38,923 nucleotides of DNA from Hymenobacter sp. (GCA_043763525.1 JAYULN010000569.1:1-38923); one strand, 5' to 3'; shown: positions 16,497 to 33,225, counted from the first letter of the stretch. Program-made: numbers and translations. The notes: generated by a model not told the origin, from the letters alone.

Positions 16497-19400
16497 ATGA
16501 AAAACCTCTACTATTTTCATCCTTCGCTCGTCGTTCGCACCCCCGCCAACCCATTCGACCGGGAGTTTGACGAAGGCACCATTCTCCGGCAAGCAACCAA
16601 TCCGGCTTTTGCCGAGGCGCTGTACCTGGCTTCGCCCAGCCTGCACGACGACAGCCAAAAGCTGCACCTGGACGAGGGACTGGCCGCCAAGAAAAAGGAC
16701 AAGGTGTACCATAGCCTGGCCCGCTACTACGCCCGAATGAGCAGCCGGTGTACGCCGTTTGCCCTGTTTGCCGGGTGCGGAGTGGTGCAGTGGGGCGAGG
16801 CCACGCGCATTACCCGGGCCGGGCAGCCCGACCGCCGCCACACCCGCCTCGACATGTACTACCTGTGCGCCCTGGCCCAGCAGCTGGCCGGGCAACCCAG
16901 CGTGCAGGCGCGGCTGCGCTACTTCCCCAACAGCAGCCTGTACTCGATGGGCGAAGAAATCCGCTACACCGAATTTCGCTACGAAAAGGCCGAGCTGGTG
17001 CATCAAATCAGCGCGGTAGCAGCCTCCGAGCCGTTGCGGCTGGCCCTGGCGCACAGCCGCGCGGGCACCACCCGGCTGGACCTGGCCCACACCATGACCG
17101 ACGACAACATTACCCTGGCCGAGGCGCTGGACTTTGTGGATGAGCTCATTGAGGGGCAAATTCTCATGAGCGAGCTGGAGCCGACGGTAACGGGGCCGGA
17201 GTTCCTGCCCCACCTACGGCAAGTGCTGGCCCGCCTGCAAGCCGAGCAGCCAAGCGAGGAAATCCGGGCTATTGAGCAAATTTTGGAAGGCGTGCAGGCC
17301 GACCTGGCGGCGCTGGATAAGCCGGGGGCCGTGAACGCCAAAAGTGCATACGAGCGAATTACGCGGGCTTTGCAAGTGCTGGAAGCGCCCATCGAGCCTA
17401 ATAAGCTGTTCCAGACGGACCTGGTGTACGACCTGGCCGGCAGCACGCTGAACCAGGACCTTCAGCCGCAGCTGCTGGAAGCGTTGGAGGCCCTGACTTA
17501 CCTGGACCCGCCCGCTGGCCACGACCGGCTGGCGCAGTTCGTGTCGCTGTTCTACGCCCGGTACGAGGAACGGGAAGTGCCGCTGCTCGAAGCCCTCGAC
17601 AACGAAAGCGGCATCAGCTATTCGGAATACGGCCAACACAGCTACGCGGCGCTGGTGCATGATTTGGCCCCGCCCGCCCAGGCGGCAGCGGGCCGGTCCA
17701 TCAGCCAAAGCGACGTGCACACCTATCTGTATGAAAAGCTGCGTGCCGCCGATAGAAACGGGGATTACACCGTGGCCATCACCACGGCGGAGCTGCGGCA
17801 GTTTGCGCCTCTGGCCCGGCCGCTGCCCGCGTCGCTGTCGGTAATGTTTCGGCTGGGCGGGGCCGGGCAAATTGTGCTGGAATCGGTGGGCGGGTCGAGC
17901 GCGGCCAACCTGCTGGGCCGCTTTGCCCACGCCGCGCCGGAAATCGACCAGCTGGTGCGCGACATTACGCAGCAGGAGCAGCACCACAACCCCGCCGTGC
18001 GCTTTGCCGAAGTGTGCCACCTGCCGGCCAGCCGCATGGGCAACATTCTGCTGCGGCCCCATTTTCGGGAGCTGGAAATTCCGTACCTGGCACAGTCGAC
18101 GCTGCCGCCCGAGCAGCAGGTGGCCTTGCAGGACTTGTACCTGTCGGTGCGCCGGGGGCAGCTGGTGCTGCGCTCGCGCAAGCTCAACCAGGTCATTATT
18201 CCGCGCCTGAGCTCGGCCCACAATTACACTAACCAAGCCCTGCCCGTGTACCAGTTTTTGTGCGACCTGCAAACCCAGGGCGTGCAGTCGCACCTCAATT
18301 TCAGCTGGAAATCCATTTCCTTCTACACCAAGTTTCTGCCCCGGCTGGTGCATGGGCGGGTGGTGCTGCAAGTAGCCTCGTGGCAGCTCGATGCCGCCGA
18401 TTTCCAACCCTTGCTCAGTGCCCCCGACGCCGAGCTGGGCCCGCGCCTCCGGGCATTTTGCGCGCAGTGGCGGCTGCCGCCGCTCTTCACCCTGGCCGAC
18501 GGCGACAACGAGCTGCTCGTGGATACGCAGAACCCGGTAACCGTCCGGGCCTGGCTCGACAGCATCAAAACCCGCCCCGGCATCCTGCTCAAGGAGTTTT
18601 TGTTTGATGCCGCCCACTGCCCCGTTACCGATGCGGCGGGCCGGCCCTACATCAGCCAGTTTGTGGCCTCCCTGGTGCGGCGCACGGCCAGCTACCAGGC
18701 CCTGCCCACCCCGGCGGCCAGCCCCCAGCCGGTGCAGCGCGAGTTTGCGCTGGGCTCCGAGTGGTTCTACACCAAGCTCTACTGCGGGCAGAAAGTGGCC
18801 AACCGCCTCCTGGTCGAGCTGGTGAAGCCTCTCACCGACACCCTGCAAGCCACGGGGCTGATAGACCACTGGTTTTTCATCCGCTACGCCGACCCCGACA
18901 ACCACCTGCGCATTCGGCTGCACCTGCCCGACACCGGGCGCATCGGCGAGCTCATTCATGCCGTGAACGCGTTTCTGGAGCCATTTGTGGCGGCCGGGTA
19001 CATCTGGCGCACCCAAACCGACACCTATTGCCGCGAGCTGGAACGCTACGGCCCCCACACCATTGGGGCGGCCGAGGCCTTGTTTTGTGCCGACAGCGCC
19101 CACGCCGTGGCCCTGTTCGAGCACAGCGCCGCCGACCCCGACCCCGACACCACCCACTGGCTGTGGGGCCTGCGCCTGATTGACTCCCTGCTCGACGCGT
19201 TTACGTATTCGCTGGAACAGAAAATCGGGCTGCTGCGCCACAGCAAAGAGGCTTTTGCCCAGGAGTTCCGCCTGGACAAGGAGCTGAAGGTGCAGCTCGA
19301 TGCCAAGTACCGCCTGCACCGCAGCGCCATTCAGCAGGTGCTGCGCCGGGCCGACGGGGCCGCCCCGGCCCCCGACGAGCCGGTAGCCCTGCTGGCCTAC

Positions 19401-19634
19401 CACCGCACCGCGCCCGTGCGGCAGGCGGCGCAGCAGCTGTTGCAGCTGGCGCAGCACGGGCAGCTGGCCGTGCCCCTCGACCAGCTGCTGGGCAGCTACA
19501 TTCACATGCTGCTGAACCGTTTGATTTCGGGGCAGGCCCGGCTGCACGAGCTGGTCATCTACGACTTCCTGCACCGGCACTACCTCTCCGAGCAGGTGCG
19601 CGGCAAGGCGGCTACTTCTTGTTCCCTCCCATAA
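16497..19634 (+). CDS. lanB: Full-length class I lanthipeptide dehydratase (glutamylation and elimination domains)
   Basis: VVRTP, EALYLASP, RYYARMSSRCTPFALFAG, RLD, FQTDL, LLGRF, DGDNEL, WFYTKLY, WFFIRYADPDNHLRIRL, YCRELERYG, SYIHMLLNRL. Start taken at ATG 16497 (MKNLYYF). Confidence 0.93.
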   Translation: MKNLYYFHPSLVVRTPANPFDREFDEGTILRQATNPAFAEALYLASPSLHDDSQKLHLDEGLAAKKKDKVYHSLARYYARMSSRCTPFALFAGCGVVQWGEATRITRAGQPDRRHTRLDMYYLCALAQQLAGQPSVQARLRYFPNSSLYSMGEEIRYTEFRYEKAELVHQISAVAASEPLRLALAHSRAGTTRLDLAHTMTDDNITLAEALDFVDELIEGQILMSELEPTVTGPEFLPHLRQVLARLQAEQPSEEIRAIEQILEGVQADLAALDKPGAVNAKSAYERITRALQVLEAPIEPNKLFQTDLVYDLAGSTLNQDLQPQLLEALEALTYLDPPAGHDRLAQFVSLFYARYEEREVPLLEALDNESGISYSEYGQHSYAALVHDLAPPAQAAAGRSISQSDVHTYLYEKLRAADRNGDYTVAITTAELRQFAPLARPLPASLSVMFRLGGAGQIVLESVGGSSAANLLGRFAHAAPEIDQLVRDITQQEQHHNPAVRFAEVCHLPASRMGNILLRPHFRELEIPYLAQSTLPPEQQVALQDLYLSVRRGQLVLRSRKLNQVIIPRLSSAHNYTNQALPVYQFLCDLQTQGVQSHLNFSWKSISFYTKFLPRLVHGRVVLQVASWQLDAADFQPLLSAPDAELGPRLRAFCAQWRLPPLFTLADGDNELLVDTQNPVTVRAWLDSIKTRPGILLKEFLFDAAHCPVTDAAGRPYISQFVASLVRRTASYQALPTPAASPQPVQREFALGSEWFYTKLYCGQKVANRLLVELVKPLTDTLQATGLIDHWFFIRYADPDNHLRIRLHLPDTGRIGELIHAVNAFLEPFVAAGYIWRTQTDTYCRELERYGPHTIGAAEALFCADSAHAVALFEHSAADPDPDTTHWLWGLRLIDSLLDAFTYSLEQKIGLLRHSKEAFAQEFRLDKELKVQLDAKYRLHRSAIQQVLRRADGAAPAPDEPVALLAYHRTAPVRQAAQQLLQLAQHGQLAVPLDQLLGSYIHMLLNRLISGQARLHELVIYDFLHRHYLSEQVRGKAATSCSLP

Positions 19635-20346
19635 TTTTTTCCTGCAGGGCGCTGAAGAAAGCACTCCGGTAGGTGTCGCCCAGCGGTACGCAGGCCTTCA
19701 TGTCCTTCAGCAAAATCTGGTTGCCGTCGAGGGCCTTGATTTTGTTCAGCGACACGATGTACGACTTATGCACCCGCATAAACTGCTTGGCCGGCAGCTT
19801 CTCTTCCAGGTCTTTGATGTTGAGCAGGGTGATGATGCGGTCGTCGTGGGTGTAGATGGACACGTAGTTCTTCAGCCCTTCCACGTACACGATTTCGTCG
19901 AAATTGACCTTCGACATCTTGCCCTTGTTTTCCGTTTTCACGAAGATGTAGTCGTCCTCCTTCTCGGGCATCTGCCATTTGGCCGACGGCTCCACGAAGG
20001 AGTTCAGCGCCTTCTGGGAGGCCTTCAGAAATCGCTCGAACGCAATCGGTTTCAGCAGATAGTCCAGCGCATCCAGCTCGAAGCTCTCGACGGCAAACTC
20101 GCTGTAGGCCGTGGTCAGAATCACCTTGCTCCGCCCGTTCAGCATCCGCATGAAGTCGAGGCCCGAGAGCTGGGGCATGTGAATGTCGAGAAAAATCAAA
20201 TCAACCGGCTGGCTCTGGACCATGCCGATGGCCTCGATGGGGTTGGTGGTGGTGCCGCTGAGCGACAGAAAAGGGGTTTTGTTGATGAAGGTGCTCAGGA
20301 TGTCCAGGGCACCTTGCTCGTCATCGACAATCAGGCATGAAATCAT
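19612..20346 (-). CDS. LytTR-family response regulator
   Basis: IVDDE, IFLDIHMP, TTAYSEFA, DYLLKP, YVEGLKNYV, FMRVHKSYIV. Its 3' end overlaps the lanB 3' end by 23 nt. Confidence 0.93.
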   Translation of the reverse strand: MISCLIVDDEQGALDILSTFINKTPFLSLSGTTTNPIEAIGMVQSQPVDLIFLDIHMPQLSGLDFMRMLNGRSKVILTTAYSEFAVESFELDALDYLLKPIAFERFLKASQKALNSFVEPSAKWQMPEKEDDYIFVKTENKGKMSKVNFDEIVYVEGLKNYVSIYTHDDRIITLLNIKDLEEKLPAKQFMRVHKSYIVSLNKIKALDGNQILLKDMKACVPLGDTYRSAFFSALQEKIMGGNKK

Positions 20347-20349
20347 TTT

Positions 20350-21393
20350 TTACAGTTCTAGGTGGAGGGTGCAGGTGTAAGAGTCGGGGGCATTGTCGAC
20401 CTCGAGAGAGTACCGGTTGGGGTAAATCACGTCCAGGCGCTTGCGGGTGTTGGCCAGGCCAATGCCCGTGGTTTTTTCCTTGGGGCCGAGGCGCTTCTTG
20501 TTATGGGTGTAAAAGAAGAGCCGGTTGTTGTCGAGGCGCAGCCGGATAATGAGCGGAGCCGCCGGGTCGGCCAATTCCCCGTGCTTGAAGCAGTTTTCGA
20601 CAAACGTGATGAGCACCAGGGGCAGAATCATCAGAAACTCGCAGCACCCGTCCACCTCGAACTGAATTTGCAGCCGGTTGCTGAAACGCAGCTGGTTGAT
20701 GGTGATGTAGTTCTGCAAGTGATGCACTTCTTCTTCCAGCATCACCTTACCGTTCTCGCCGGTTTCCTTCAGGGCGTAGCGCATGATGGTGGACAGCAGC
20801 AGGATGCTCCTGGCCGCATCTTCGGACAGCGGGTACACCTGCGCGTACAGAAAGTTGAGCGCGTTGAAGAGGAAATGGGGGTTGATTTGGCTTTTGAGGA
20901 ACGCCACCTCGGCCTCGAGCAGGCTTTTTTCGGTGAGGCGCAGCTGCACCTGCTGCTGGCGCTGCCGCCGCTCGAGCCCAATGGCGTTGCGGGCAAACCA
21001 ATAGGCGAAGCTCAGCATCAGGAAATAGATGCCGCGCGACACCGTCTGGGCCCAGAACAGCTTTTCTGAGCTCACGGGCCGCAGCATGTTTTGGCCCAGC
21101 GCCGGCAGCAGCGCCATGTTCACCACGCCCCGCAGCGCCGCATACACGGCAAACAGCGCCAGCATCGTCGCTCCAAACGCCAGGTAGCGGCGGCGGGCGT
21201 ACAGCCGCGGCAGCAGCACATGCCCATTGCTGTAGAACAGCATAGCGTAGAGCAGGAAATTCAGCGCGACTTCGGCATAGTTAAAGCGCGCGGAATCAAT
21301 GAATAGTAAGAGCGAGGACTCATAAAGAATATAAAACAGCCATATAGATAAATGGGTGATTATGAGTCTTATATTTCTCGGCGCGAATGTCAT
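20350..21393 (-). CDS. LytS/YehU-type membrane histidine kinase
   Basis: About four N-terminal TM segments; LKSQINPHFLFNALN, ENCFKHG, TGIGLAN. Start taken at ATG 21393 (MTFAPRN). Confidence 0.92.
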   Translation of the reverse strand: MTFAPRNIRLIITHLSIWLFYILYESSLLLFIDSARFNYAEVALNFLLYAMLFYSNGHVLLPRLYARRRYLAFGATMLALFAVYAALRGVVNMALLPALGQNMLRPVSSEKLFWAQTVSRGIYFLMLSFAYWFARNAIGLERRQRQQQVQLRLTEKSLLEAEVAFLKSQINPHFLFNALNFLYAQVYPLSEDAARSILLLSTIMRYALKETGENGKVMLEEEVHHLQNYITINQLRFSNRLQIQFEVDGCCEFLMILPLVLITFVENCFKHGELADPAAPLIIRLRLDNNRLFFYTHNKKRLGPKEKTTGIGLANTRKRLDVIYPNRYSLEVDNAPDSYTCTLHLEL

Positions 21394-21680
21394 AGTCCTG
21401 CGGTAGCCCTGCCCCCCATCCGATGCGCAACTAAACGCGGGTAGCCATTGGCAGGGCAAAGAAGGCGAATAAGTTCTTACCCATTTAGTCACCCAGGGCG
21501 GGCAAGCCCCTATTTCCTTGACTAACAGCCGCAATTAACCATCGCGGCCCCATGGCGGGCTTTGGGGCGAGCGGCGGCCCGCCTGCTACCGCCCGGGGCG
21601 GCCCCGGGCCCCAGCCGCTCCCTGCGGAGGCTGACAATCCGGAAGTTCATCCCCCGAATGAGGGGGTTGGTGTAATAATT

Positions 21681-21711
21681 TTTGACTGGCTTCCCGTCTT
21701 CTCTAGGTTTG
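21681..21711 (+). promoter_or_regulatory. Consensus Bacteroidota housekeeping-type promoter upstream of the peptide gene
   Basis: TTTG (21681-21684), 19-nt spacer, TAGGTTTG (21704-21711), matching TTTG-N19-21-TAnnTTTG, 52 nt before ATG 21764. Confidence 0.75.
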
Positions 21712-21763
21712 TTTCATCAACAAGGCAACCACACTTCTCCTCACCTTTTTCACAACCAACCCG

Positions 21764-21895
21764 ATGAAAACCGCCAACAAAACCACTACCGCCAAATTCG
21801 GTCTGCAAAAGAAAATCGTTACCCGTTTCTCGCACACCCAAACCAGTACCAAGCCGAACTTCACCTCGCTCGACACCTGGTCGTCGTTTATGTAG
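21764..21895 (+). CDS. Putative RiPP precursor, 43 aa, Cys-free: MKTANKTTTAKFGLQKKIVTRFSHTQTSTKPNFTSLDTWSSFM
   Basis: Hand-translated (absent from the ORF track). Leader FGLQKKIVTRF resembles the LxLxKxx(I/V)xxL leader of Bacteroidota class I lanthipeptides; 10 of the last 21 residues are Ser/Thr; own promoter; lies between lanB and the lanC-like gene. Confidence 0.8.
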   Translation: MKTANKTTTAKFGLQKKIVTRFSHTQTSTKPNFTSLDTWSSFM

Positions 21896-22008
21896 AGCAC
21901 CGCGGCCGGGCTCGGGCCCGGCCAGCGGCCCCCACCCCCCGCCCCCAACATTCGCGCGCGCTTCGGCAGCCGCAGCCTGTTGATGGGAAGCTTAGCCCGC
22001 CGGCTTGC

Positions 22009-22072
22009 GACGGCCTAAGCCCGAATGGTGCCACAACTGATTGGTTGTGCGGCCATTTTGGCTTAGGCCGTC
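22009..22072. other. Long imperfect hairpin between the precursor and the lanC-like gene
   Basis: GACGGCCTAAGCC (22009-22021) pairs with GGCTTAGGCCGTC (22060-22072); inner pairs AATGG/CCATT and CACAAC/GTTGTG. Confidence 0.7.
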
Positions 22073-22149
22073 ACCAACGGGTAGCTAAAAAATAGCGAGG
22101 GAAATAATTAGCAAATCCGGGTGAGCGGGGTTCCGGCAACTACCCCGAT

Positions 22150-23346
22150 ATGGAGACACGACGCGGGCTATTCGTAAATAATAATTCGATGACAAATTGG
22201 GAAGCCATCCACGCTATTATCGAAAGCCCCACGGCTTTTCCGGCTTATAATTTAAGCGGGCTGGCCGTTTATTATTATTCGCTGTACCAGCAAACCGGCG
22301 AGGCCACTTACAACCAGCAGGCCAAACACTTATTTAATCAGCAGCTGGCCGAAATTGAGGCCCAGCTGACCAGCGCTGATTTTAACCCAAAGCACACGAA
22401 TTTTTGCGCCCTGGCCTGGCTGGACAAGCAGTGCAAACCGCTGTGGCACTACGACACCAACCTCTTCGCCCGGCTCGACCGTTGCCTGCTCGAAGAAGCC
22501 AACCGGCTTATCCGCACCACCGCAAGCCCCAACTGGGGCCCATTGCTGCACATTATGCGGTATTTTCTGGAGCGGCTGCCGGACGCAGCCGTGGCCCACT
22601 ACCTGCACGAGGTGGTGGCCATGGCGTATGGCATTACCCGGCAAAGCCTTGCCCAAACGCAGGCCGGCGGCACCATTCAGCTGGGGCTGGCCAATGGTTT
22701 GGTGGGCGAGCTGTTGGTGTTAATTGACATTTATAATACCGGAATTAAGCCGGCTATTATTCTCGATATCGTCCGCAATGGCATTACGGCGCTGCTGCAC
22801 ACCAAGCGGGAAGCGGATTTCCTGGCCGGGCGCTATTCCATTTTTCCCGATTCGGTGGACCACCGCTGGCAGGCCCCGGTGTATTCCAACAACCTGAGCT
22901 GGGGCCACGGGGTCGATTTGGGCGTTTCGCTGGTACTCTACAAGGCCCAGCAACTATTGGGCGACGATGCCGAGCTGGCCAAAATCGCGGAGCTCGTGGG
23001 CCTGAACACCTTGCTGCGCACCGAGCCGAAAACAACCGGCTTAAGCAGCTCGCAGTTCTGCCAGGGCACCGCCGGCGTGGCCTACCTCTACCACCAGCTT
23101 TTCTTGCTGAGTCATAACCCAGCTTACCAGCAGGGCTACCAGTTCTGGCTGGGCCAAACCCAAAACTGGCTCGGACAGGAGCTGCCCACCGAATTTTACC
23201 GGGGGCGCGAGCAGCGCTCGCTCTGCGGCGTGCCGGGCGTAAGCATCGCGCTGCTGGCCCTGGTAGACGAGCCGGCCAGCGCCGCCCCCCGCCGCAACCT
23301 GGCCGCCGTGGACATGGTGTGCCTGAGCAAGGCCAGCGCACTGTAG
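22150..23346 (+). CDS. LanC-like (lanthionine synthetase C fold) protein with degenerate active site
   Basis: GLAVYYYSLY; LGLANGLVG (cf. GLAHG); LSWGHGVDLG (cf. WCYGDLG); FCQGTAGVA (cf. CHGxAG); SLCGVPGV. Start may be ATG 22189. Confidence 0.82.
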   Translation: METRRGLFVNNNSMTNWEAIHAIIESPTAFPAYNLSGLAVYYYSLYQQTGEATYNQQAKHLFNQQLAEIEAQLTSADFNPKHTNFCALAWLDKQCKPLWHYDTNLFARLDRCLLEEANRLIRTTASPNWGPLLHIMRYFLERLPDAAVAHYLHEVVAMAYGITRQSLAQTQAGGTIQLGLANGLVGELLVLIDIYNTGIKPAIILDIVRNGITALLHTKREADFLAGRYSIFPDSVDHRWQAPVYSNNLSWGHGVDLGVSLVLYKAQQLLGDDAELAKIAELVGLNTLLRTEPKTTGLSSSQFCQGTAGVAYLYHQLFLLSHNPAYQQGYQFWLGQTQNWLGQELPTEFYRGREQRSLCGVPGVSIALLALVDEPASAAPRRNLAAVDMVCLSKASAL

Positions 23347-23502: not shown

Positions 23503-23705
23503 GGGGTCGGCCGAAGGTTGGCACAAAACTTAGCCGGTCGGCTTGCCCACTACGGCTTTCCAGTGGCTGTGAATGACTACGCCCCGATGACGCAGGTATT
23601 TGTGGGGTCGGCCGAAAGTTTGGTGCAAAACTCAATCAGTCGGCTTGCTGGCTGCGGCTTGCCGATGACTATGAATGACGACACCCCGGTGGCACAGGTA
23701 TTTGT
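23503..23705. mobile_element. Two tandem Tn3-like element ends, each followed by a resolvase C-terminus
   Basis: GGGGTCGGCCGAAGGTTGGCACAAAAC at 23503 and GGGGTCGGCCGAAAGTTTGGTGCAAAAC at 23604. On the minus strand copy 1 encodes KYLRHRGVVIHSHWKAVVGKPTG* and copy 2 KYLCHRGVVIHSHRQAAASKPTD*. Confidence 0.7.
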
Positions 23706-24243
23706 AGAGCGTAACCTTGGAGATGTGCAGACGCTGGGCAATCTCATTCACTCCAAGTTTTTGCTCGCGGTAGAGCGTCTCGGCTACGATGGACGTGCGC
23801 ACGGCCTCTTCCGATAGCCCCCGCCGGCTGCCACCCACCCGGCCCCGCGCCCGCGCCGCAGCCAGTCCGGCATAGGTGCGCTCGCGAACCAGTTCCCGCT
23901 CAAATTCAGCCAGCGAGGCGAACAGGTTAAACACGAGTCGGCACTGGGCCGAGGTGATGTTGATGGCATCAGTGAGTGAAACCAGGCCCACGCCCCGGAA
24001 CTCCAACTCCGCCACCATGTCCAGCAAATGCTTGAGGGAACGGCCCAGCCGGTCGAGTTTGTAGATATAAACGGTGTCGCCGGGACGCAGACCGGCCAAC
24101 ATACGGTCCAACTCGGGGCACGCTTTCGCGGCCCCGGATGCTTTCTCCTAGCAAATGGTTTCACACCCAGCCTTATTTAAGGCTTCGAGTTGTAGTTCCA
24201 GATTCTGGTCGCGGGTCGAGACGCAGGCGTAGCCGATATTCAT
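23632..24243 (-). pseudogene. Serine resolvase/invertase pseudogene
   Basis: From ATG 24243: MNIGYACVSTRDQNLELQ...ETIC*EKASG; in-frame TAG at 24148-24150; YARVST changed to YACVST; downstream KLDRLGRS, LAEFERELVRERT and C-terminal HTH. Confidence 0.9.
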
Positions 24244-24249
24244 GGTACA

Positions 24250-24409
24250 AGTACAGGTTTATCGTCGCGAAGGCAACCTTGTTTGCACTTTGATTGCTGA
24301 ACAAGTTTTCTGAACCGATTCCGTCCGTTTTGACTGACATTTGCGGTCGTTCAGCATAGCCGCCGACTTGTTCAGTCAAACGAGGGTTTTGATTTTTGGC
24401 CAAAAATCA
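24250..24409. promoter_or_regulatory. Probable res site/promoter region of the resolvase
   Basis: Upstream of the resolvase with repeated TGAAC/GTTCAG half-sites (GCTGAACAAGTTTTCTGAACC, CGTTCAGCATA, TGTTCAGTCAAACG), ending in a 20-bp palindrome at 24390-24409. Confidence 0.45.
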
Positions 24410-27349
24410 TTCTAACAAGAGTTGGGATACTTGCCCAGTATTGTTGAGCCGCACGAGGTACACCCCTTTTAGCAAAGCTGTTAAATCCAGGTTAAGCGTT
24501 CCATCAGCCGATGGGCGCATAGACGCTTGGTACACGCACCGACCCACTACGTCGCATATCACGACAGCCGTTGGGCCGGTGAAGCTCCCTTGCACCCGGA
24601 CGAGTCCAGTAGACGGGTTGGGAGCCAATAACCAACTATTGAGCACGGCCCCGGCCGGCACCGCGCTCAACGGCGACGACACCCGAACGGTGAAATCCCG
24701 CACTTGCCCCAGTTCTTCCTGGCGGCGGCACGGGTCGGGAACCGTCGTGAGCCGGGTGTTGAAGGGCATACCCCAACAAGCGACGCGCAATCGTAGGGGT
24801 TGGTTGAGCAGCGTAGTCGCGGGCACCGTGATGGTGCCGCGAAACGTGCCCCCGATAAATCCGGTGGCCAACGAATTAAACAATAATTCTTGCGGGGCTT
24901 CGAACAGGCCGTTATCGTTCGCATCGAGCCACACAAAGCAAGAGGTCCCGCTGTAGTTGGAGTCGGCAAAATAGAAGGCGGCGCTGGCCCCTGCCGTCAG
25001 CGCAATGGCGGCCTGCGTGCAAGTCTCGTCCCGGTAGCCGACCGAATTCGCGGGTTGATGATAGGCGAAAACCGGCCCAATTTCCAAGGTGCCCATGCCG
25101 TGTCCCGCCCCCGTAGTACCCGCCGTTGGGGAAGGCAGGCAGGATACCGGCCGAGGGCCGGTCGTTGAGGTGCTGACGGATACGTAACCGGAACGGGTGG
25201 CCGTGTTGGTACCATATTGGTTGCTGGCTTGCAGGGCCACTGTGTAAGTGCCCGGTGCGGCGTAGGTGTGTAGGGGGTGTTGTAGGGTGGACGTGCCGCC
25301 GTCGCCAAACGACCACTGCCACCGATTGGGGGCGGCCACACTTTGGTCCCGGAACTGCACCACCGGGTTGCAGCTGGCCGGTTGGTCGGCCGCAAAATCC
25401 GCCGTGGGGGCGACAGGGGGCGGCATAATTACCACTGTGTAGTCCTCCACGGCGGCATTTATAAACCCCGGGGTGCATGAGCTGGTGGGCACAAAACTCG
25501 TGACGCCGTGAATGATGGCCCGCAACCGGGTGGCCCCGGCCTTGGCTGCGGCGGGAATGGTAACGCTCAACACCTGGGGACTAAACTGGGGCTGCGAGCT
25601 AAATTGCTCGGAGGGGCCAAATTCGCCGTCCTGGTTGTAATCAATCCAGACCTCCACGGCCACCCACGGGCCGGAGCCCGCGAAGGTCCATGGCAATGAC
25701 TCAGTCCGCACAGTATAGGTCTGGTCGGATTGCACCGTCGCGTAACGGGCCGTAAAATCGCGGTAGCCTACTCCAGGACCTCGAAAGTCCGTGTTATCCA
25801 GGTTGGCGAATTGAAAGCGCGTGAAGTAGGCCGGGCCGGCGCTGCTGCTGCCCCCCCCGGCGGTGCAGTAGCTGGGACAAGCGGTGGCCACGGCCACCCG
25901 CTGCCGGGCCGTGTCGCGCCCAAAAGCGTTCTGCGCGATGAGCTGCACTTCGTATACCCCCGCCGTCAGGTAGAGGTGAGCAGGCGGCACCGCGGCCGTA
26001 GAACTCGTGCCATCGCCAAAGTTCCAGCGGTAGCTGGTCGCCCCGCCGGCAGATTGATTGGCAAACGCCACCCGCACGGAATCGCACAGGCGCTCGTAGC
26101 GCACCGTAAAGGCCGAAGCGGGGGGAGCAGCGTTCGTCAAAATGATGAGGGAATAGTCTTCGGCCTGGCCAGACTGCACGGGGCCGCAGGGTCCGGTAGC
26201 ACTACTGCCGGCAAAGTCGGCCACGATGCGCAGGCGCAGGGCTTTGTTGTAAACCGACGCTACGGACGAAGGAATCGTGAGCGGCACCACCGGGCTGTGC
26301 ACCGACAGGCCCTGGTAAAGCAACTCGGCTGACCCGGAAAACTGGCCGTCGTCATTCAAATCCAGGTATACGCGCACGTCGTGGGCACCGGGACCCGTGG
26401 TGAGCCGTAGCGTATCGGGCTGGTCGGCCGTGAGCGTGGCGCGCTGGGCACAGCTAAAATCCTCGTAGCCGGCTTGCCCATCGGCCGAAGCATGGTCCAC
26501 GCCCGCTAAGCGCACACGGGTAAGCCCAAACTGGCAACAGTAGGCCACCGTGGCCGGTTGGCAATTACTGGCGCGCGGTCCATCGGTTCGTACCCGTACG
26601 TAGGCGGCGCGGGTAAGCGAGTCGCAGCCGCCGGGATTGCACACGCGCAATGACACGGCATAGGTGCCGGCTGCTGCATAGGTATGGGTCGGGTGCTGCT
26701 GCGTACTGGTCGTGCCGTCGCCGAATTGCCAGCGCCACGCTGCTGGCGTATTGAAGGAGTTGTCCCGAAAGGCGACCACGCCGGAGCATGTAATGGAATC
26801 AGCCGCCGCGAAGTGCGCCACCGGGGCCGCATTACCGGCTGTAATGCGCACCTGGTAGTCTTCAGTTTGGGAGTATTGAGGAGTCGAACAAGCCGTGGGA
26901 ATTGGGCTATTCACATAGTCAGCAGCGATGCGCAACCGCAAGGGCTGGTTTAAAATTGACGTGACTGGTACGGTGAAGCTACCGCTATGAGTGAGGGCAT
27001 TGAGGGAATACAGAATGCGCTCATTAGTGGCAAATGTTCCGTCATTATTATAGTCCAGCCATGCCACCACATTTTCGGCGGCAGAGATTCCGGTTTGCAC
27101 GCGCAAGGTGTAGGTAGAGCTTTGCAGAACATTAACCCTGCGTTGGCAACTGTAGTCGCGGTAGCCGTCGACGCTGCCATTGGTTACTGTATCTAGGTTG
27201 GCTAGTTGAACCCGATAAATGCCCATACCGAATTGGGTATTGGCTGGTGAAGCCGAACCGGAAACACAGATAACTGCTGGGAGGCATTGGGCCTGCGATA
27301 ATAATGATGGCAACAATAATAACAGTAACCATAAAGGAGTGTTTTTCAT
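24407..27349 (-). CDS. T9SS-secreted surface protein with 4 GEVED-like and 3 PKD domains
   Basis: Signal peptide (SQAQ); GEVED-like ends QTEDY, GQAEDY, AVEDY, GQVRDF with (W/Y)xDxNxxG motifs; PKD W(Q/N/S)FGDG; CTD LAPNPSTG...KGVYLVRL. Confidence 0.88.
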   Translation of the reverse strand: MKNTPLWLLLLLLPSLLSQAQCLPAVICVSGSASPANTQFGMGIYRVQLANLDTVTNGSVDGYRDYSCQRRVNVLQSSTYTLRVQTGISAAENVVAWLDYNNDGTFATNERILYSLNALTHSGSFTVPVTSILNQPLRLRIAADYVNSPIPTACSTPQYSQTEDYQVRITAGNAAPVAHFAAADSITCSGVVAFRDNSFNTPAAWRWQFGDGTTSTQQHPTHTYAAAGTYAVSLRVCNPGGCDSLTRAAYVRVRTDGPRASNCQPATVAYCCQFGLTRVRLAGVDHASADGQAGYEDFSCAQRATLTADQPDTLRLTTGPGAHDVRVYLDLNDDGQFSGSAELLYQGLSVHSPVVPLTIPSSVASVYNKALRLRIVADFAGSSATGPCGPVQSGQAEDYSLIILTNAAPPASAFTVRYERLCDSVRVAFANQSAGGATSYRWNFGDGTSSTAAVPPAHLYLTAGVYEVQLIAQNAFGRDTARQRVAVATACPSYCTAGGGSSSAGPAYFTRFQFANLDNTDFRGPGVGYRDFTARYATVQSDQTYTVRTESLPWTFAGSGPWVAVEVWIDYNQDGEFGPSEQFSSQPQFSPQVLSVTIPAAAKAGATRLRAIIHGVTSFVPTSSCTPGFINAAVEDYTVVIMPPPVAPTADFAADQPASCNPVVQFRDQSVAAPNRWQWSFGDGGTSTLQHPLHTYAAPGTYTVALQASNQYGTNTATRSGYVSVSTSTTGPRPVSCLPSPTAGTTGAGHGMGTLEIGPVFAYHQPANSVGYRDETCTQAAIALTAGASAAFYFADSNYSGTSCFVWLDANDNGLFEAPQELLFNSLATGFIGGTFRGTITVPATTLLNQPLRLRVACWGMPFNTRLTTVPDPCRRQEELGQVRDFTVRVSSPLSAVPAGAVLNSWLLAPNPSTGLVRVQGSFTGPTAVVICDVVGRCVYQASMRPSADGTLNLDLTALLKGVYLVRLNNTGQVSQLLLE

Positions 27350-27360
27350 ATATTCACCAC

Positions 27361-27864
27361 TTATTCAGGAGAGATATACCAGTCTCCACATATTTTTTTA
27401 GATTCTTTCAAAACCTTCAATGTTTCTGGGTAAGTAATCTTTTCAACACTTTCAGCTTTGAAAATCACGTTTCCGCTACTCATATATAATTTAAGCAATG
27501 TGCCTAAACCATCGGGCTCGCCATCATATTCCCTAATTCCTATTGAATTAAGCTTACTATCTAATTGCCTTACATAGGCAGATGGGTTTTTCTTTAACAG
27601 CGGAATAGTTTGCAAATATTCAATGCTGTCATTATTAAGCGTGTAAACTTCCTCTTTTACATCAATTACATACTGATTTGTTTTATTGCCCTTGTATGTT
27701 CTGAATATTATCAATCCATGACCCCGATTCTTTGCGAGAAAGGAATGAGTTAGTGTTGTCGTTAAATAGACTTGATTTTCGCATAGTCTTTCATCCTGTT
27801 GCTTAGTGGAGCAACTGCAAAATAAGATTATTAGCGATGCGCTGTAAGTAGGCAGTCTTTTCAT
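27361..27864 (-). CDS. Lipoprotein, putative immunity protein of the RHS toxin
   Basis: MKRLPTYSASLIILFCSC lipobox-like signal (ATG 27864); AT-rich; starts 4 nt after the RHS stop. Confidence 0.7.
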   Translation of the reverse strand: MKRLPTYSASLIILFCSCSTKQQDERLCENQVYLTTTLTHSFLAKNRGHGLIIFRTYKGNKTNQYVIDVKEEVYTLNNDSIEYLQTIPLLKKNPSAYVRQLDSKLNSIGIREYDGEPDGLGTLLKLYMSSGNVIFKAESVEKITYPETLKVLKESKKICGDWYISPE

Positions 27865-27868
27865 TGGC

Positions 27869-30800
27869 TTAGAATTTAGGCCCATACATATCGTTCATCT
27901 TCTGTGTCCTCTGGGACTGGCGAAGCATTTCAGTACCGGCTGGCGAGTTAGTATGCCCATTATATATCGCTCTCTGGTCACCTGGAGAGTCAAAAAAGGC
28001 TGGCGGGCCATTAGTACCGGGCCCAAAGGTGTATATAGGTGTTTTTTGAACTCTGCCAAAGAGCATATTATTAACCTGACCGCCTGTTTGTGCTACGCCC
28101 ACTGAAATCCCTAATTCAGCTGCTCCTCTGCCGAATAAATAATTTCCAATGTCACCGACATTGTAAGCTACTCCCTCCCTTAAATAAAAGGTCTTAGCAT
28201 TTAAATCATGTGCCCCAATTCCGGTAGCGCCATAATCCATTTTGTTAGCTCCTTCTCTCCAAGCGTAGAGAAGAGGTGAATTTCTTGCTTCACTGGATTT
28301 CACGCCGCTTTCATCTATCATCTTTTCAACCTTACTGTCAGTTAGAACCTCAGCCTGGGTTATGCCACTATTTCCTTGAATTCCGTTTTTAATAGCTTGT
28401 ACATCAGCCACTGGGTCATTAAATTGGTAACTCTGTTGCTGACACGTTTTAGAGTTTTCGATTACCAAAGCATCAGGTTTATTATTCTTATCGGTTCTAA
28501 TATAATTACCTTTCTCGTTAAATACATAATTGTCAAATGGTTCCATGCCATCTGGGTCAATAAACCGAATAGGATTATTAAAAGCATAGTTATATGCACT
28601 ATGCCGCCTCATCTTATCAGCCAGTGGGTCCACCGAGTTCCACCGCCCCAGTTGCGCATCGTACATGCGGGCTCCGTAGTCCAGCCAGTTGAGATTAAAG
28701 TCCGTCTGCTTCTCCTTGCCATTGTACTGGAACCGGCCGTTCGGGTCTCCGTCGTGTTCGATGCCCACCAGATTGAGCCCAAAAGGGTCGTAGTGGTTTT
28801 CCTGGTATTTGTATGGCTCTACGGGCCGCGATAATGCCATATCATCAAAATAGGCCGGCAGGGCACTTTGGTTGACCAGGCTCACGCGCACATAACCCGC
28901 GCTATCGGCTTTAAGACCAGCAGTCAGGCGCTGCCAGGAATCGGTTGCCGACCGGGTTAATGCACTGGTGCGCGTAGCAACCAACTGACTATCGCGGTTG
29001 AACAACTCGTAACGCAGATATGCCTGCGGGACCTGGGCCCGGCGCAGGCCCAAGAGCTGCGGAATAATAGCTAGGCTAACTCCCACGTAAGGCAGAAACT
29101 TGCGACGACTGGCCAGGGGCGTGTTCTGGTCGGCAGCCCCAGTAGCCGGTACGCTGCCAACCACGGCTCCGGCTACGAGCGCCCCCGTGCGGAAGGCCCC
29201 GGGCGTCAACTGGCCGCGGTCGTAGCGCCCGTACACTTCAGCCGTCACGCTGTCGCCAGCGGTAACAGCCAGGGTGAGCGTCGGGCCCTGCGCTCGCCCT
29301 TCGCGGGCATTCAGCTTCGCTACGTAATCGCCGGTACGTGCATGCAAAGCATCCCGAAAGCGGGTTTCGCCCACGTGCTGGAAATCGCGTTCTTCCTGCG
29401 CCGCATTCACCGGCTCCATGCCCGCCGAGGCGGTCCGTTGAGCCGTCGTGCCATTCGGCTCACGGAACGCATAGCGGACGTTGCCCAAATGGTCTTTGAT
29501 AAAGTACTCGTACTTCCAGCCGAAGCTGGGGGCCGTTGTGCCCTGGCCCGGCGTAAAGAGGACCCGCCCTTCGCTGGTCTGCACGAACGCAGGCACCCTA
29601 GGGGTGGTCTGGGATGTGGGCGTTTCGTAAACAAAAGGGCCGACGTAGTCCGTTGTCTTCAGCAAGTTCCCCATGCCGTAGGTGCGTTGCTGCAATTTGG
29701 TGCCCGTCGACGAGTACGTATACTCAATCCGGGTGCCATAGAACTTGTTGACGACCGTGGGCTGATTCAACAGGTTGTAGCCTGTGACCGAGACGAGACG
29801 GTTCGGGTCGTTGAGCAGATTTCCGTTTTTATCGTACGTATAAATCTGGGAACCGCCCCCTTGAAAATCGTGGGTGGCCGCGTGGGACGCGGCAAGGTCC
29901 ACAACGCTCTGCAACTGATTGCCCCCCAGCCGACTATAGGTATAGCGCAAGTCGTCGAGGGGGCCGCTTCCAGCCGTCGCTGGCCCGTTGATGTTGCCTT
30001 GGCGCATCATCGAGGTGATGTTGCCGTTGCCGTCGTAGCCAATATTTGACGCCGTGAAGTCGGTCGTAGTTTTACCGAAGGTGTAGTTTTCGTAGGTAGT
30101 GTAATCGGCTCCCCGCAGACGGCTGGCCCCGTCATACGAATAGGCGTAATCGCGCAAAATATTGGTTGGGTCGGTGCCCAGCGTATTCGGCGTGCGCGTT
30201 TTCCACAGCACTTCGGCGATATTGCCGTTGAACTGCCCTTGGCCTTGGTGCAGCCGGTCGTTATAGCAAATGTCCATCCCAAACAAGTCGTGGTCCGCCG
30301 TCAGGTCATCGGGGTCGGCGACTTGCCCTTCCACATTTTTGCCATCGGTCAAGTCCCGGTCGTTGATATTGGTCAACCAGCCCCGGATGTTGTAGCGAAA
30401 ATCGATTTTCTGCAAAAAACCGGTGCCCGCTGTGTAGGGCGGGTCGGGATTCACGCTCGGGTTGTGCAGCCGCTTGTCGATGAGCTGACCCACCTCGTTG
30501 TAGGTGTTTTCCACGAGCAATATTTTTGCTTGTCCCCCCGTTTCCTGGAAGGTGCGCTTTGGTCGTCCGGCATGGTCGTAGGTAAACTCGTTCCGGACGG
30601 TGTACGGCATATTCGTGCCGTTGGTGTGCGTGAGCAGCGAGTTCTGGAGCCGCGTAAAATCATACGTGTTCACGAGGTTATCCACCCCGCCCAGGTGGTT
30701 CAGGCTAACCTTTTGGACCAGGCGCGACCGGTCATCGTAAAAATTTGCTGTCACCAGCCAAGGCGATGGAGTCCCGTTGACTATCATTCCAGCCACGCTG

Positions 30801-33175
30801 ACCTGCCGTTCGCAACTGCCGGTTGGCAAGCCCCGGACCCCATCGGTTTTGGTAGCCACTGTGGGCGACAGGCGCGAGTCCTGCAACTTTCCGTAGCCGT
30901 ATTGGTCGTAATACGTAATCGTCAGCAGGTTGGCATTCTCCGTCAAACCCCGAGGGTACGCGTCATTCAGCGTGTAGCCGACGGATGAGCCGTTCAGGCT
31001 TTCCCACAGCGAGGCTCCAGCCGTTGCGTCGGCATCCACGTCAGTCTGCAGGTCTGCCTGGGTCTTATTAGAAGGAAACGAAACCGTGCCTCCCAGGACC
31101 GGACGGCCGAGGGCATCGTACTTCGTAAACGCCCATTCGTTACTGGTCTGCTGGTTAATGTACCGCTGGTTGCCGTCCTGCGTGAGCACTACTTGGTCGC
31201 GCTGATTATAGATCAACAAGACGGGGTCAGTGCCCGGGGTCTGTTTGCTAAGGATTCGATGACGTCCGTCGTATGCGTAGACAAAGCACCAGTTGTGGAG
31301 GAAGTCTGCCCACAGGGTCCAGCTGTTCACCTCAACGAGATAATTGTAGCCTTCGGGTTGGATAACGAGACGCAAGTTATCCAAGTCGTCGTACACGTAA
31401 TACGTCAACAAATTGGTCGCGGGCGCATACCGCTGGGCCACGGTAACTTTTCTGAGCACGACATGCCCCAGTAAATCCTTGAACTCGCTCACCAGTTGGT
31501 CTTGTTCGTCCCGCGTCTCCACTACAGAAAGGGTACCGGTGGCATACACCCCCGGAGAACTATACGTCCCACTGCCCGAATCAAAATTCCATTGGCGGAC
31601 GGCATCGGCGGCAGTATTCGCTCGCTGGTTAAACTTAACGGCATGGCCAGTGCCCGGCTGCCAGGCAGCTCCGGGTGCCCCCTGCTCCTGCACCCGGTTC
31701 AACGGCGAGGCTTCGTAGCTGGTCTTGGACCACGGGTTGGCATCTTTTGCCACCCGGGTCAGGGTAGCATTTGGCTGGTAAAATGCGGCCTGTTGGGCTA
31801 GGGCATTCATTTTATACCCCCCATCATCCAAGTCCTGCGTATAGGGCAGGTACGACGTTGCCGTTCTGCCCACCAGGTCGTAAGTAATCGGCTGTACTAA
31901 ATCAAGTTGGGTTGGACTGCCCGCTCGCTGCACCTGTTGAATCGGCCGTCCCAGGCCATCCATGTAAGTGGTACTGACTGCCACGTCTTTTGGTACGCGG
32001 CCCAGCATATCGGCGGCCGTTGCCAACCCCGCTATTTGAGCCGTTCGAGTGGTGATAAAATTCCCTTGATTTACCTGTACCTGCACTTGGAGCGGTGCGG
32101 AACTCAATCCACACCGCGTACCCACCACTGTGTAGGTAGTTGTAGTGTTTGGTGCGGCGGCATAGGTAGTTGTAGTGTTTCCCTGACCAGATACTGGAAC
32201 GTACGTGATAGTACTTGAAGGGGTCCATGTATAAGTAGTCGCTCCACTAACTGTTATCTTGGCTCCTACCGCATCGCCGAGCGTGTACTGGTATCCCCAT
32301 TGGGCTCCCCCCACAGGCGGGTCCACAAGGCTAATAACCGGGGGCAATGGCGTAGTCGTAATGGAAAGGATGGCATTTCCAGGATTCGCAGTGGTGCTTC
32401 CAACAGACGCGGCTTTACTTGCCAAAATGACGTAGTACGTCCCCGCTGGTAGGTCAACACTTAAAAAGGACGCATTCGGATTACAACTGGTAAGAGGTGC
32501 ATCATCGTTTGAATAATTTGAACCATACAGTGAACTACTTAAGAACAAGTAGGTATCGTAGTTGGAATAGCAAGTATTGAGGGCAACCGTGCTTGGGATA
32601 GACAAGCTAAAGCGCAGATAAAACGCTCGGTAGCCGTTTTGATAGCAAACCTCGTTGCACGGTCCGATGGAAGTGGGAACTCCCTGCGTTCCGCCGCAAT
32701 CAACCAACGTTCCCAAGTCACGCAGGTTATTCATGCTGGTTCCCACATTAGCAGTAGAAGGAGACGGACAGGAAACAGTAACCGTTAAATTTCCATCTTC
32801 AACAATATTATACGGGTAGACATTTTGTTGAATTTGATACCAAACCCGCCCGGTACCCGACGTGTTCCATTGAACAGTTACACTCGTTGAAGTAGGCGAG
32901 GAACCGCTTTGTACAATGGTGCCATTTGTAACTTGCCAAGACCAAGACGGGCTATAATAGGCGGAGTTGTATCCATTATAGGTATATGTCTTCGTTTCGC
33001 CAACAAGAGTGGGGCCATTAGGACCGTAGATATGGTAATTATTTTGACCTAATGCCGCTATTCCGTGGACGAATAAAACGGTCAAAACAACTAGATTTCG
33101 GCCAAACCAACCCGCATGGCCTTTCGATTTTCGCACAAGATTTGCGGGAGATTGGAGAGTAGCAAGGAATGACAT
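27869..33175 (-). CDS. DUF6443-type RHS repeat-associated core polymorphic toxin with Ntox44-like C-terminal domain
   Basis: Signal-like N-terminus and Ig/PPC-like domains; TYMDGLGRPIQ...YEASPLNRV (DUF6443-like); YNIRGWL; DHLGNVR; YQENHYDPFG, QYNGKE, DYGARMYDAQLGRW, NNPIRFIDPDGM; tip has DIGNYLFG and DSPGDQRAIYNG. Confidence 0.9.
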   Translation of the reverse strand: MSFLATLQSPANLVRKSKGHAGWFGRNLVVLTVLFVHGIAALGQNNYHIYGPNGPTLVGETKTYTYNGYNSAYYSPSWSWQVTNGTIVQSGSSPTSTSVTVQWNTSGTGRVWYQIQQNVYPYNIVEDGNLTVTVSCPSPSTANVGTSMNNLRDLGTLVDCGGTQGVPTSIGPCNEVCYQNGYRAFYLRFSLSIPSTVALNTCYSNYDTYLFLSSSLYGSNYSNDDAPLTSCNPNASFLSVDLPAGTYYVILASKAASVGSTTANPGNAILSITTTPLPPVISLVDPPVGGAQWGYQYTLGDAVGAKITVSGATTYTWTPSSTITYVPVSGQGNTTTTYAAAPNTTTTYTVVGTRCGLSSAPLQVQVQVNQGNFITTRTAQIAGLATAADMLGRVPKDVAVSTTYMDGLGRPIQQVQRAGSPTQLDLVQPITYDLVGRTATSYLPYTQDLDDGGYKMNALAQQAAFYQPNATLTRVAKDANPWSKTSYEASPLNRVQEQGAPGAAWQPGTGHAVKFNQRANTAADAVRQWNFDSGSGTYSSPGVYATGTLSVVETRDEQDQLVSEFKDLLGHVVLRKVTVAQRYAPATNLLTYYVYDDLDNLRLVIQPEGYNYLVEVNSWTLWADFLHNWCFVYAYDGRHRILSKQTPGTDPVLLIYNQRDQVVLTQDGNQRYINQQTSNEWAFTKYDALGRPVLGGTVSFPSNKTQADLQTDVDADATAGASLWESLNGSSVGYTLNDAYPRGLTENANLLTITYYDQYGYGKLQDSRLSPTVATKTDGVRGLPTGSCERQVSVAGMIVNGTPSPWLVTANFYDDRSRLVQKVSLNHLGGVDNLVNTYDFTRLQNSLLTHTNGTNMPYTVRNEFTYDHAGRPKRTFQETGGQAKILLVENTYNEVGQLIDKRLHNPSVNPDPPYTAGTGFLQKIDFRYNIRGWLTNINDRDLTDGKNVEGQVADPDDLTADHDLFGMDICYNDRLHQGQGQFNGNIAEVLWKTRTPNTLGTDPTNILRDYAYSYDGASRLRGADYTTYENYTFGKTTTDFTASNIGYDGNGNITSMMRQGNINGPATAGSGPLDDLRYTYSRLGGNQLQSVVDLAASHAATHDFQGGGSQIYTYDKNGNLLNDPNRLVSVTGYNLLNQPTVVNKFYGTRIEYTYSSTGTKLQQRTYGMGNLLKTTDYVGPFVYETPTSQTTPRVPAFVQTSEGRVLFTPGQGTTAPSFGWKYEYFIKDHLGNVRYAFREPNGTTAQRTASAGMEPVNAAQEERDFQHVGETRFRDALHARTGDYVAKLNAREGRAQGPTLTLAVTAGDSVTAEVYGRYDRGQLTPGAFRTGALVAGAVVGSVPATGAADQNTPLASRRKFLPYVGVSLAIIPQLLGLRRAQVPQAYLRYELFNRDSQLVATRTSALTRSATDSWQRLTAGLKADSAGYVRVSLVNQSALPAYFDDMALSRPVEPYKYQENHYDPFGLNLVGIEHDGDPNGRFQYNGKEKQTDFNLNWLDYGARMYDAQLGRWNSVDPLADKMRRHSAYNYAFNNPIRFIDPDGMEPFDNYVFNEKGNYIRTDKNNKPDALVIENSKTCQQQSYQFNDPVADVQAIKNGIQGNSGITQAEVLTDSKVEKMIDESGVKSSEARNSPLLYAWREGANKMDYGATGIGAHDLNAKTFYLREGVAYNVGDIGNYLFGRGAAELGISVGVAQTGGQVNNMLFGRVQKTPIYTFGPGTNGPPAFFDSPGDQRAIYNGHTNSPAGTEMLRQSQRTQKMNDMYGPKF

Positions 33176-33225
33176 GGAGAAGACGGGTAAAATGTGGACT
33201 ATCTGACCTTGCTGTAATTCTGATG

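Follow-up and report, generated by a model that had tools for sequence, protein, structure and literature searches.

A conserved unit of LanB dehydratase, LanC-fold pseudo-enzyme and LytTR regulator pair in Hymenobacter, possibly a feedback regulator with a dehydropeptide signal

A five-gene unit with the parts of a lanthipeptide cluster and of a signalling system lies within a stretch of 38,923 nucleotides from Hymenobacter sp. (GCA_043763525.1 JAYULN010000569.1:1-38923), which as a whole we call the window. The first gene, lanB (16497..19634, + strand), encodes a 1045-residue protein with the PF04738 and PF14028 domains, predicted to be a full-length tRNA-Glu-dependent Ser/Thr dehydratase of a cassette-type clade; on the opposite strand follow the genes for a LytTR response regulator (19612..20346, − strand; PF00072 and PF04397) and a membrane histidine kinase (20350..21393, − strand; 347 aa, PF06580). 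The + strand then carries a promoter element that is a predicted LytTR binding site (21644..21711; repeat 1 at 21644-21653, repeat 2 at 21665-21676, TAnnTTTG -7 element at 21704-21711), a precursor peptide gene (21764..21895; 43 aa, with a basic-hydrophobic KFxLxKxxVTRF leader, a Ser/Thr-rich tail, and neither Cys nor a double-glycine site), a structured intergenic region (21896..22149; two long hairpins without a U tract), and the gene for a LanC-fold pseudo-enzyme (22150, or from the ATG at 22189, to 23346; 398 or 385 aa, PF05147, E 7e-13). As judged from sequence, the five genes travel together, the catalytic set of LanB is intact, and that of the LanC-fold protein is lost although selection still acts on its gene; one promoter element stands before both the peptide and neighbouring operons and tracks the LytTR subfamily. 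We favour the reading, to which we give an even chance of being right, that the unit arose from a class I lanthipeptide cluster and serves as a portable feedback regulator whose signal is a ring-free dehydropeptide.

The unit was followed through a main sample of 251 genomes of the Hymenobacter family (G, L and C labels below stand for genome, locus and contig, and G000 is the genome studied); the sample contains related genomes, so that the counts are mutually dependent. The cassette LanB is present in 33 of the 251 genomes and a strong LanC-like match likewise in 33, with 32 common to both, and every cassette-LanB genome also carries the LytTR subfamily; one of the two exceptions to co-occurrence, G047, has a LanC-like fragment only, and the other, G174, is taken up below. 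Genes are usually ordered as in the window. Named relatives are Hymenobacter species, and cultured type strains carry the unit, Hymenobacter lucidus BT178 and H. elongatus JCM 17223 among them. Complete units occur beyond the family as well, in G537 and G570 of another family within the order, and incomplete variants are seen in G255 and G386. In G066 and G164 the unit is split by a nonribosomal peptide synthetase (NRPS) cluster of ~55 kb or by a lanthipeptide cluster, and all five genes are retained. At L024, L025 and L008 no peptide was found between the element and the lanC-like gene; at L025 (G066) and L008 the peptide is found elsewhere in the split unit. L024 is labelled Janthinobacterium and is nearly co-linear with Hymenobacter L025, probably reflecting a binning error in a metagenome-assembled genome. 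Biosynthetic neighbours, differing in kind, occur in the fetched flanks of 20 of the 33 genomes, these flanks being of unequal length and some being ended by contig ends.

LanB aligns to NisB (4wd9_A) and to two further solved dehydratases, 9g04 among them, and has all 11 of the NisB-type catalytic positions: ten were placed by the NisB alignment (R14, Y80, R83, R87, T89, D121, R464, R786, R826 and H961) and D299 was assigned by motif only. These positions, which we take to be those with a catalytic role in NisB, are invariant in 47 of 47 full-length LanBs, 31 of them of the cassette type (four partial LanBs were excluded), and the protein is predicted to have both the glutamylation and the elimination domain of a class I dehydratase, as the first-pass annotation of this DNA had proposed on the basis of NisB-like residues. 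In a FastTree phylogeny with midpoint root the cassette LanBs fall together in a single clade (37 rows, support 95) beside canonical Bacteroidota LanBs; their nearest relatives belong to canonical clusters, three of four of which carry the same promoter element (L060, L080, L115). Upstream of 23 cassette lanB genes no common motif was apparent by eye.

The LanC-like protein, on the other hand, has lost most of the residues that define the cyclase. The zinc ligands of NisC are C284, C330 and H331 and its acid His is H212, according to the accessible text of PMC9889658; that of PMC9934072 also gives the roles of the LanC catalytic residues. Relative to the canonical LanC of the same genome, the D/H/C/C/H positions are N/N/G/C/Q, so that the zinc ligands and acid His of a class I cyclase read N/G/C/Q in the window. 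The earlier description of a degenerate LanC is borne out for the acid His and two of the three zinc ligands, which are gone, but one zinc-ligand Cys (C304 in the 398-aa ORF) is kept. The fold appears to be preserved: the structure model has a predicted local distance difference test score (pLDDT) of 89, and its best fold matches are MadC and NisC, with template modelling (TM) scores of 0.69-0.71. Loss of the catalytic residues is general among relatives, since 60 of the 62 closest homologues retain at most one of the four, and in a tree of 149 rows (subsampled from a larger stored set) the LanC-like proteins form a single supported clade; 89 of its 92 rows retain at most one. In a phylum-wide sample of 400 genomes, with four candidates scored per genome, no additional cassette-type LanC-like gene was found at E 1e-25. 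Zinc-less LanC-like genes are described in Bacteroidales as always lacking a LanB, in the part of PMC10352776 available.

Decay of a lanthipeptide cluster would be the simplest account of such losses. The LanC-like protein is indeed the fastest-diverging of the unit, with 31-42% identity in most loci, and broken copies occur, namely the fragment in G047 and a gene with a stop inside the match in G142. Against this, the ratio of nonsynonymous to synonymous substitution rates (dN/dS) is 0.07-0.30 in eight of eight close pairs, indicating purifying selection; the degenerate proteins form the single supported clade described above; and promoter and leader are conserved. Decay is already largely refuted by the dN/dS values, and we regard it as very improbable; the first-pass suggestion of repurposing gains from the conservation of the unit, the single LanB clade and the selection on the LanC-like gene.

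A repurposed LanC fold could instead be a new catalyst, one by which a nucleophile other than Cys (an outside thiol, Lys, His or water) is joined to the dehydro residues, giving a new cross-link or adduct. The fold is intact and under selection, and Y125, R129, D243 and R277 (385-aa numbering, used for the LanC-like residues that follow) are invariant; LanCL1 adds glutathione to dehydro residues, as stated in the available text of PMC9934072, and class III cyclase domains are described, in a source available in part, as functioning without zinc ligands. The same four invariant residues are, however, common to canonical LanC, of the 60 close homologues that are degenerate only one has His at the acid His position, and none of the five positions has acquired a fixed substitute; the former catalytic positions vary freely, which argues for a pseudo-enzyme and not a new catalyst. 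Peptide cores, moreover, have no conserved Lys or His, and G174 does without the gene. We consider catalysis of this kind quite unlikely. What distinguishes the clade is a conserved helix, E-L-A-K-I-A-E-L-V-G-L-N-T-L-L-R, at about residues 260-277, together with D210/F211 and E174, all at positions that are variable in 70 canonical relatives; the helix region may be a binding surface. The conserved patch is acidic and hydrophobic, and the peptide leader is basic and hydrophobic; a complex prediction for the LanC-like protein with the peptide scored 0.02 against a mark of 0.32, which weighs neither way. A leader mimic at the LanC-like N-terminus was considered and dropped, being present only in L024 and L025.

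Other partly degenerate LanC proteins were seen in the sample. In a separate clade (L057:13382-14587, L058, L064, L065, L070) the acid His is kept and all three zinc ligands are lost; the clusters of this clade have Cys-rich double-glycine precursors, a LanB and an exporter, and no canonical LanC was seen in L057. At L088-L091 a related, partly degenerate LanC stands in tandem with a canonical LanC.

The peptide of the window has no Cys and hence lacks the core Cys of a class I lanthipeptide precursor. It belongs to a set of 34 aligned peptides with a common leader motif and a Ser/Thr-rich tail, in which Ser and Thr make up 40% of the last 16 residues compared with 11% in five control proteins; the peptides of L023, L063, L074 and L113 and two extra copies in L010 are outside this alignment. 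Twenty-six of the 34 have no Cys and the remaining eight have one or two, confined in one peptide to the leader region; where a peptide bears Cys, its LanC-like partner also lacks the catalytic set. The idea, put forward at first pass, that loss of Cys is paired with loss of the cyclase is thus supported by the majority of peptides but is not a strict rule. Cores are highly variable, one locus has three peptide copies, and the double-glycine site is not conserved among the aligned peptides. The intergenic region downstream has a folding z-score of −3.8 relative to 200 shuffles, and its hairpins are likely to stabilise the peptide message and to reduce read-through into the lanC-like gene.

Run against the genome's 19,660 small ORFs, a profile of the peptides recovered its own member (E 8e-13) and one weak match (E 0.01), with no others below E 0.9, in agreement with the earlier view that the only precursor candidate of the locus is free of Cys. 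The weak match is a precursor with Cys that belongs to the genome's second class I cluster, a canonical one, which is broken over two contigs (G000:C187:2491-5547 and G000:C128:1-5497) and has its own LanB, an intact LanC, a C39 exporter, HlyD and a double-glycine site in that precursor. A Cys substrate and an active LanC elsewhere in the genome, which the first-pass annotation had named as a possible explanation of the cassette LanB, therefore do exist, but alongside a LanB of their own, so that the cassette LanB is left unexplained by them. As the canonical leader is weakly related to the cassette leader, cross-talk is possible.

We infer that LanB modifies the cassette peptide. The peptide might alternatively be a leader decoy or scaffold that tunes LanB or the LanC-like protein by binding, the true substrates of LanB being canonical Cys precursors in trans. 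Such a role would suit the resemblance of the leader to the canonical precursor and to the class I leader model NF038153 (weak matches in nine of 34 peptides, E up to 1 and best 6e-5, with no match for the window copy), and also the second lanB cluster in the flanks of 10 of the 33 cassettes; canonical clusters, however, have their own LanB, and Ser/Thr-rich tails would be needless in a decoy, which makes this role rather improbable in our estimate.

The LytTR regulator is the most conserved part of the unit, with 60-89% identity among cassette genomes and dN/dS of 0.01-0.08. Its partner was described at first pass as a LytS-type kinase; the LytTR protein and a PF06580 kinase are present, but Pfam gives no LytS 5TM domain, so the kinase is not a true LytS. 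The N-terminal region of the kinase has about four hydrophobic stretches as judged by eye (a hydropathy scan at a threshold of 1.6 flagged one N-terminal stretch only) and no large outer domain, and its invariant residues are H17, W21, E28, Y57, R123 and F127 in alignment numbering. Related kinase/LytTR pairs without LanB, peptide or LanC-like gene were also seen at L157-L165, L168 and L169, where the element stands before small secreted proteins or before the kinase itself; at one of these loci (L159, in G106) three kinases occur in tandem.

The promoter element found upstream of the peptides is rigid in its architecture: a repeat, a second repeat 21 bp on, and at a fixed distance a TAnnTTTG element, which we take to be the Bacteroidota -7 box. 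The repeat spacing is 21 in 30 of 30 parsed promoters (the script picked among 20-23, and one additional promoter was left unparsed), and the distance to the -7 element is 37 in 28 and 38 in two. LytTR regulators bind 9-bp repeats 12 bp apart, according to the accessible text of PMC6193735, which amounts to a 21-bp period equal to the spacing here. The window site is the top-scoring site of the genome, where two sites score at least 28, as against none in two base-shuffled genomes. A strict pattern gave 112 matches in 54 of the 251 genomes, compared with three for the reversed control, and it matched in 41 of 46 genomes with the LytTR subfamily but in only 13 of 205 without; seven of those 13 matches are one near-identical sequence, presumably a chance match in a conserved gene, and are kept in the counts. 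Matches at the peptide promoters are circular; outside the training of the pattern are the matches in 11 of the 13 LytTR-positive genomes without the cassette LanB, which in fetched loci lie beside those genomes' own kinase/LytTR pair. We infer that LytTR binds the element and activates from it. Scans for sigma-70 promoters and for terminators gave results at chance level.

Copies of the element outside the training set precede genes of several kinds: PF14905 outer-membrane barrels heading lanthipeptide, NRPS or clusters resembling those that make ribosomally synthesized, post-translationally modified peptides (RiPPs); canonical lanB genes, Cys precursors, NRPS genes, a thioesterase/phosphopantetheinyl transferase operon and secreted proteins; and acyl-ligase operons and NusG-family genes fronting biosynthetic operons. 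The second-best site of the studied genome precedes a type II polyketide synthase (PKS) cluster with ammonia-lyase, FabG, ketosynthase and acyl carrier protein genes (G000:C345:181-8165), annotated by reading the sequences and not by a family scan, which we presume to be aryl-polyene- or flexirubin-like; an ammonia-lyase/type II PKS cluster directly adjoins lanB in G098, G186 and G199. A conserved secreted protein of ~700 aa, in which Pfam recognises only a type IX secretion system (T9SS) sorting domain, stands behind the element and adjoins the cassette in several genomes (L062:9422-11521, L072, L073, L185).

Several copies of the element front no ORF but 120-270 nt that end in a terminator-like hairpin, and these stretches are candidate small RNAs; Rfam gave no match in six loci with such candidates. 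The first family, of ~120-160 nt (L181:1244, L137:1520, L184:7284 and L186:7027, in G244, G096, G144 and G160), starts behind the element, ends in a terminator-like hairpin and a 3' block that is conserved, faces a small convergent gene, and shows a mean column identity of 73% in the four genomes, with no Rfam match in three scanned loci. The second type (L182:6957 and 6420, L183:1498 and 2009, and L180:3174, in G244, G144 and G013) is AT-rich, with repeated GUUAUU/UUAUU words, and often forms tandem pairs 510-540 bp apart, each member behind an element and ending in a terminator-like hairpin; it too has no Rfam match, and it is reminiscent of protein-titrating RNAs.

Downstream of the unit, directly after the lanC-like gene, the window has a resolvase gene apparently split over two frames (23632-24243, − strand); a similar sequence ends contig C128, and a resolvase likewise follows the lanC-like gene at L011/L064. 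A lower-GC block (24407-36912, − strand) encodes a GEVED/PKD T9SS-sorted protein, a DUF6443 protein (1768 aa) and an RHS-repeat protein (1228 aa), and is followed by an insertion sequence with an integrase domain.

The closest biosynthetic systems are the class I lanthipeptide clusters of Bacteroidota with an LxLxKx5L leader (Walker et al., bioRxiv 10.1101/2020.03.13.990614), which, from the part of that source available, are alike in their full-length LanB and stand-alone LanC fold and have a possibly related leader; Ped15, pinensin and viridisin are named examples in the accessible text of PMC9680876. The unit differs from them in that most cores have no Cys, in having no Zn/His site, double-glycine site or exporter, and in adding a fixed kinase/LytTR pair; neither an exporter nor a leader protease is encoded within the window. 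RODEO mining discarded precursors without a core Cys, as far as the available part of its source describes, so that loci like these would have been filtered out and the family missed. Nor does the unit resemble class III, with its LanKC fusion and Cys core, since NF038151 scores 13.5 bits against a cut-off of 575. Linaridins, daptides and dehydrazoles are likewise linear peptides rich in dehydroalanine and dehydrobutyrine (Dha/Dhb), which are here only predicted to form; those families have their own tailoring and export genes and are not known to include a pseudo-LanC or a LytTR module.

On the regulatory side, the closest systems are agr and streptococcal ComCDE and BlpRH, which are peptide-activated LytTR two-component systems, and the LytTR Regulatory Systems described in the accessible text of PMC6193735. 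The unit is like them in its LytTR regulator, in tandem repeats of 21-bp period upstream of the promoter, and in that a small-peptide operon and bacteriocin-type genes are the targets, here predicted, of control. The unit has the LytTR regulator with a membrane kinase, here PF06580, and a predicted site of tandem LytTR repeats before the gene of its putative signal peptide. Unlike agr-type systems, it has no dedicated exporter and no AgrB protease or AgrD thiolactone precursor (no such Pfam match among the five genes, and a Cys-free peptide), its peptide is predicted to be modified by LanB, and its divergent kinase/lytTR operon carries no element in the window. The nearest published analogue is CA_C0082 of a clostridial Agr system (PMC10301443), which the accessible text describes as a lanthipeptide-synthetase homologue without zinc ligands, encoded beside a peptide-signalling two-component system, controlled by it, and often adjoining lanthipeptide clusters. 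CA_C0082 differs, by the same text, in being derived from a class II LanM with both domains degenerate and in that it has no part in making the signal, a cyclic peptide derived from AgrD; the unit has a stand-alone LanC fold with no LanM dehydratase domain, not a LanM architecture downstream of agrBD-agrCA, as well as a separate intact LanB with its own peptide, and occurs in Gram-negative bacteria. By its predicted genes the unit therefore falls outside the class I lanthipeptides, lacking both core Cys and a Zn site, and outside agr, having neither AgrB nor AgrD, and it likely works as a peptide-activated LytTR system assembled from lanthipeptide parts. Unit and promoter are undescribed among the papers searched, which were largely non-subscription with supplements excluded, and the available portions of PMC10663231, PMC11251773 and PMC13532221 do not mention the unit. 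What is new here, on sequence patterns, is a rigid promoter shared by the peptide, neighbouring lanthipeptide, NRPS and type II PKS clusters, secreted proteins and candidate small RNAs.

In the feedback regulator that we favour, LytTR would turn on the peptide and lanC-like operon through the 21-bp tandem repeat and would switch on neighbouring natural-product and secretion operons through the shared element. LanB would dehydrate the Ser/Thr-rich tail to a ring-free dehydropeptide; the LanC-like protein would hold, without catalysis, either the precursor or the reactive product, buffering or presenting the signal; and the dehydropeptide would act on the membrane domain of the kinase to set kinase/LytTR activity, probably as positive feedback (autoinduction). 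Because the unit has no exporter, the loop may operate within one cell, at its inner membrane, or via an exporter encoded elsewhere. A feedback module is the simplest reading of a regulator pair, peptide, dehydratase and dead cyclase that stay constant while the neighbouring output changes.

A number of observations weigh against it. Thirteen of the 46 LytTR-positive genomes have no cassette LanB, and in the 11 LanB-less loci fetched the pair occurs without LanB or LanC-like gene and the kinase membrane residues are the same invariant set, so this kinase family can be of use where no peptide is encoded locally, and it may respond to something else; in a quick LytTR tree 10 of the 11 LanB-less regulators group in a single clade, nested among cassette regulators whose own branching is unresolved, a hint that these pairs arose by secondary loss. 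Components are also missing individually: G174 has LanB and peptide with no LanC-like match, G255 has peptide and LanC-like gene with only a 35% LanB elsewhere, and no peptide was found in G386. P0045, inside the pseudo-enzyme clade, keeps all three zinc ligands. In the window no copy of the element stands before lanB; the site before the C345 cluster matches the -7 element poorly (score 0.6), G098 and G199 have weak ammonia-lyase sites and in G186 none was detected, and the canonical lanthipeptide cluster of the genome has no site above threshold. There is no exporter or protease in the unit, and a C39 exporter is absent from the fetched flanks in 21 of the 33 genomes; in the other 12 one is present, in inspected loci as part of a neighbouring cluster.

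Finally, LytTR control of the peptide fits an output as well as a signal, and the chief rival follows from this: the peptide could be a plain product of the kinase/LytTR pair, a linear poly-Dha/Dhb effector (antimicrobial, surface-active or thiol-scavenging) which the LanC-like protein carries or from which it protects the cell, with no feedback. That its operon is under the same element as other natural-product operons, that pairs of the subfamily exist without a peptide, that cores are so variable and in one locus triplicated, and that the genome has two C39 exporters outside the unit would all suit an effector. The unit itself, however, has no exporter, protease or double-glycine site, and it stays with its regulator pair while neighbouring clusters change and survives splitting; we judge a plain output unlikely, though less so than the other alternatives. 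Of the two roles offered at first pass, an agr-like signal is backed by the shared element and the changing neighbours, and an exported electrophilic antimicrobial is the weaker because the unit has neither exporter nor protease.

The feedback loop centred on a dehydropeptide could have a wider setting. Peptide autoinduction is documented mainly in Gram-positive bacteria. We tentatively suggest, as a somewhat doubtful extension, cell-to-cell signalling in Bacteroidota in which the dehydropeptide is the autoinducer, the dead LanC its intracellular receptor or buffer, LytTR gates adjacent lanthipeptide, NRPS or PKS clusters, partly via small RNAs, and LanB-less pairs are eavesdroppers on neighbours' peptides. 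Nutrient state is another thing on which the loop could report, as LanB uses up charged tRNA-Glu. With the unit present in cultured type strains, each step is open to test. If the favoured reading is true, Bacteroidota would be putting RiPP chemistry to a new use, in the form of a ring-free signal with a pseudo-cyclase; the promoter element predicts a regulon, and activation of LytTR might wake silent lanthipeptide, NRPS and PKS clusters of Bacteroidota.

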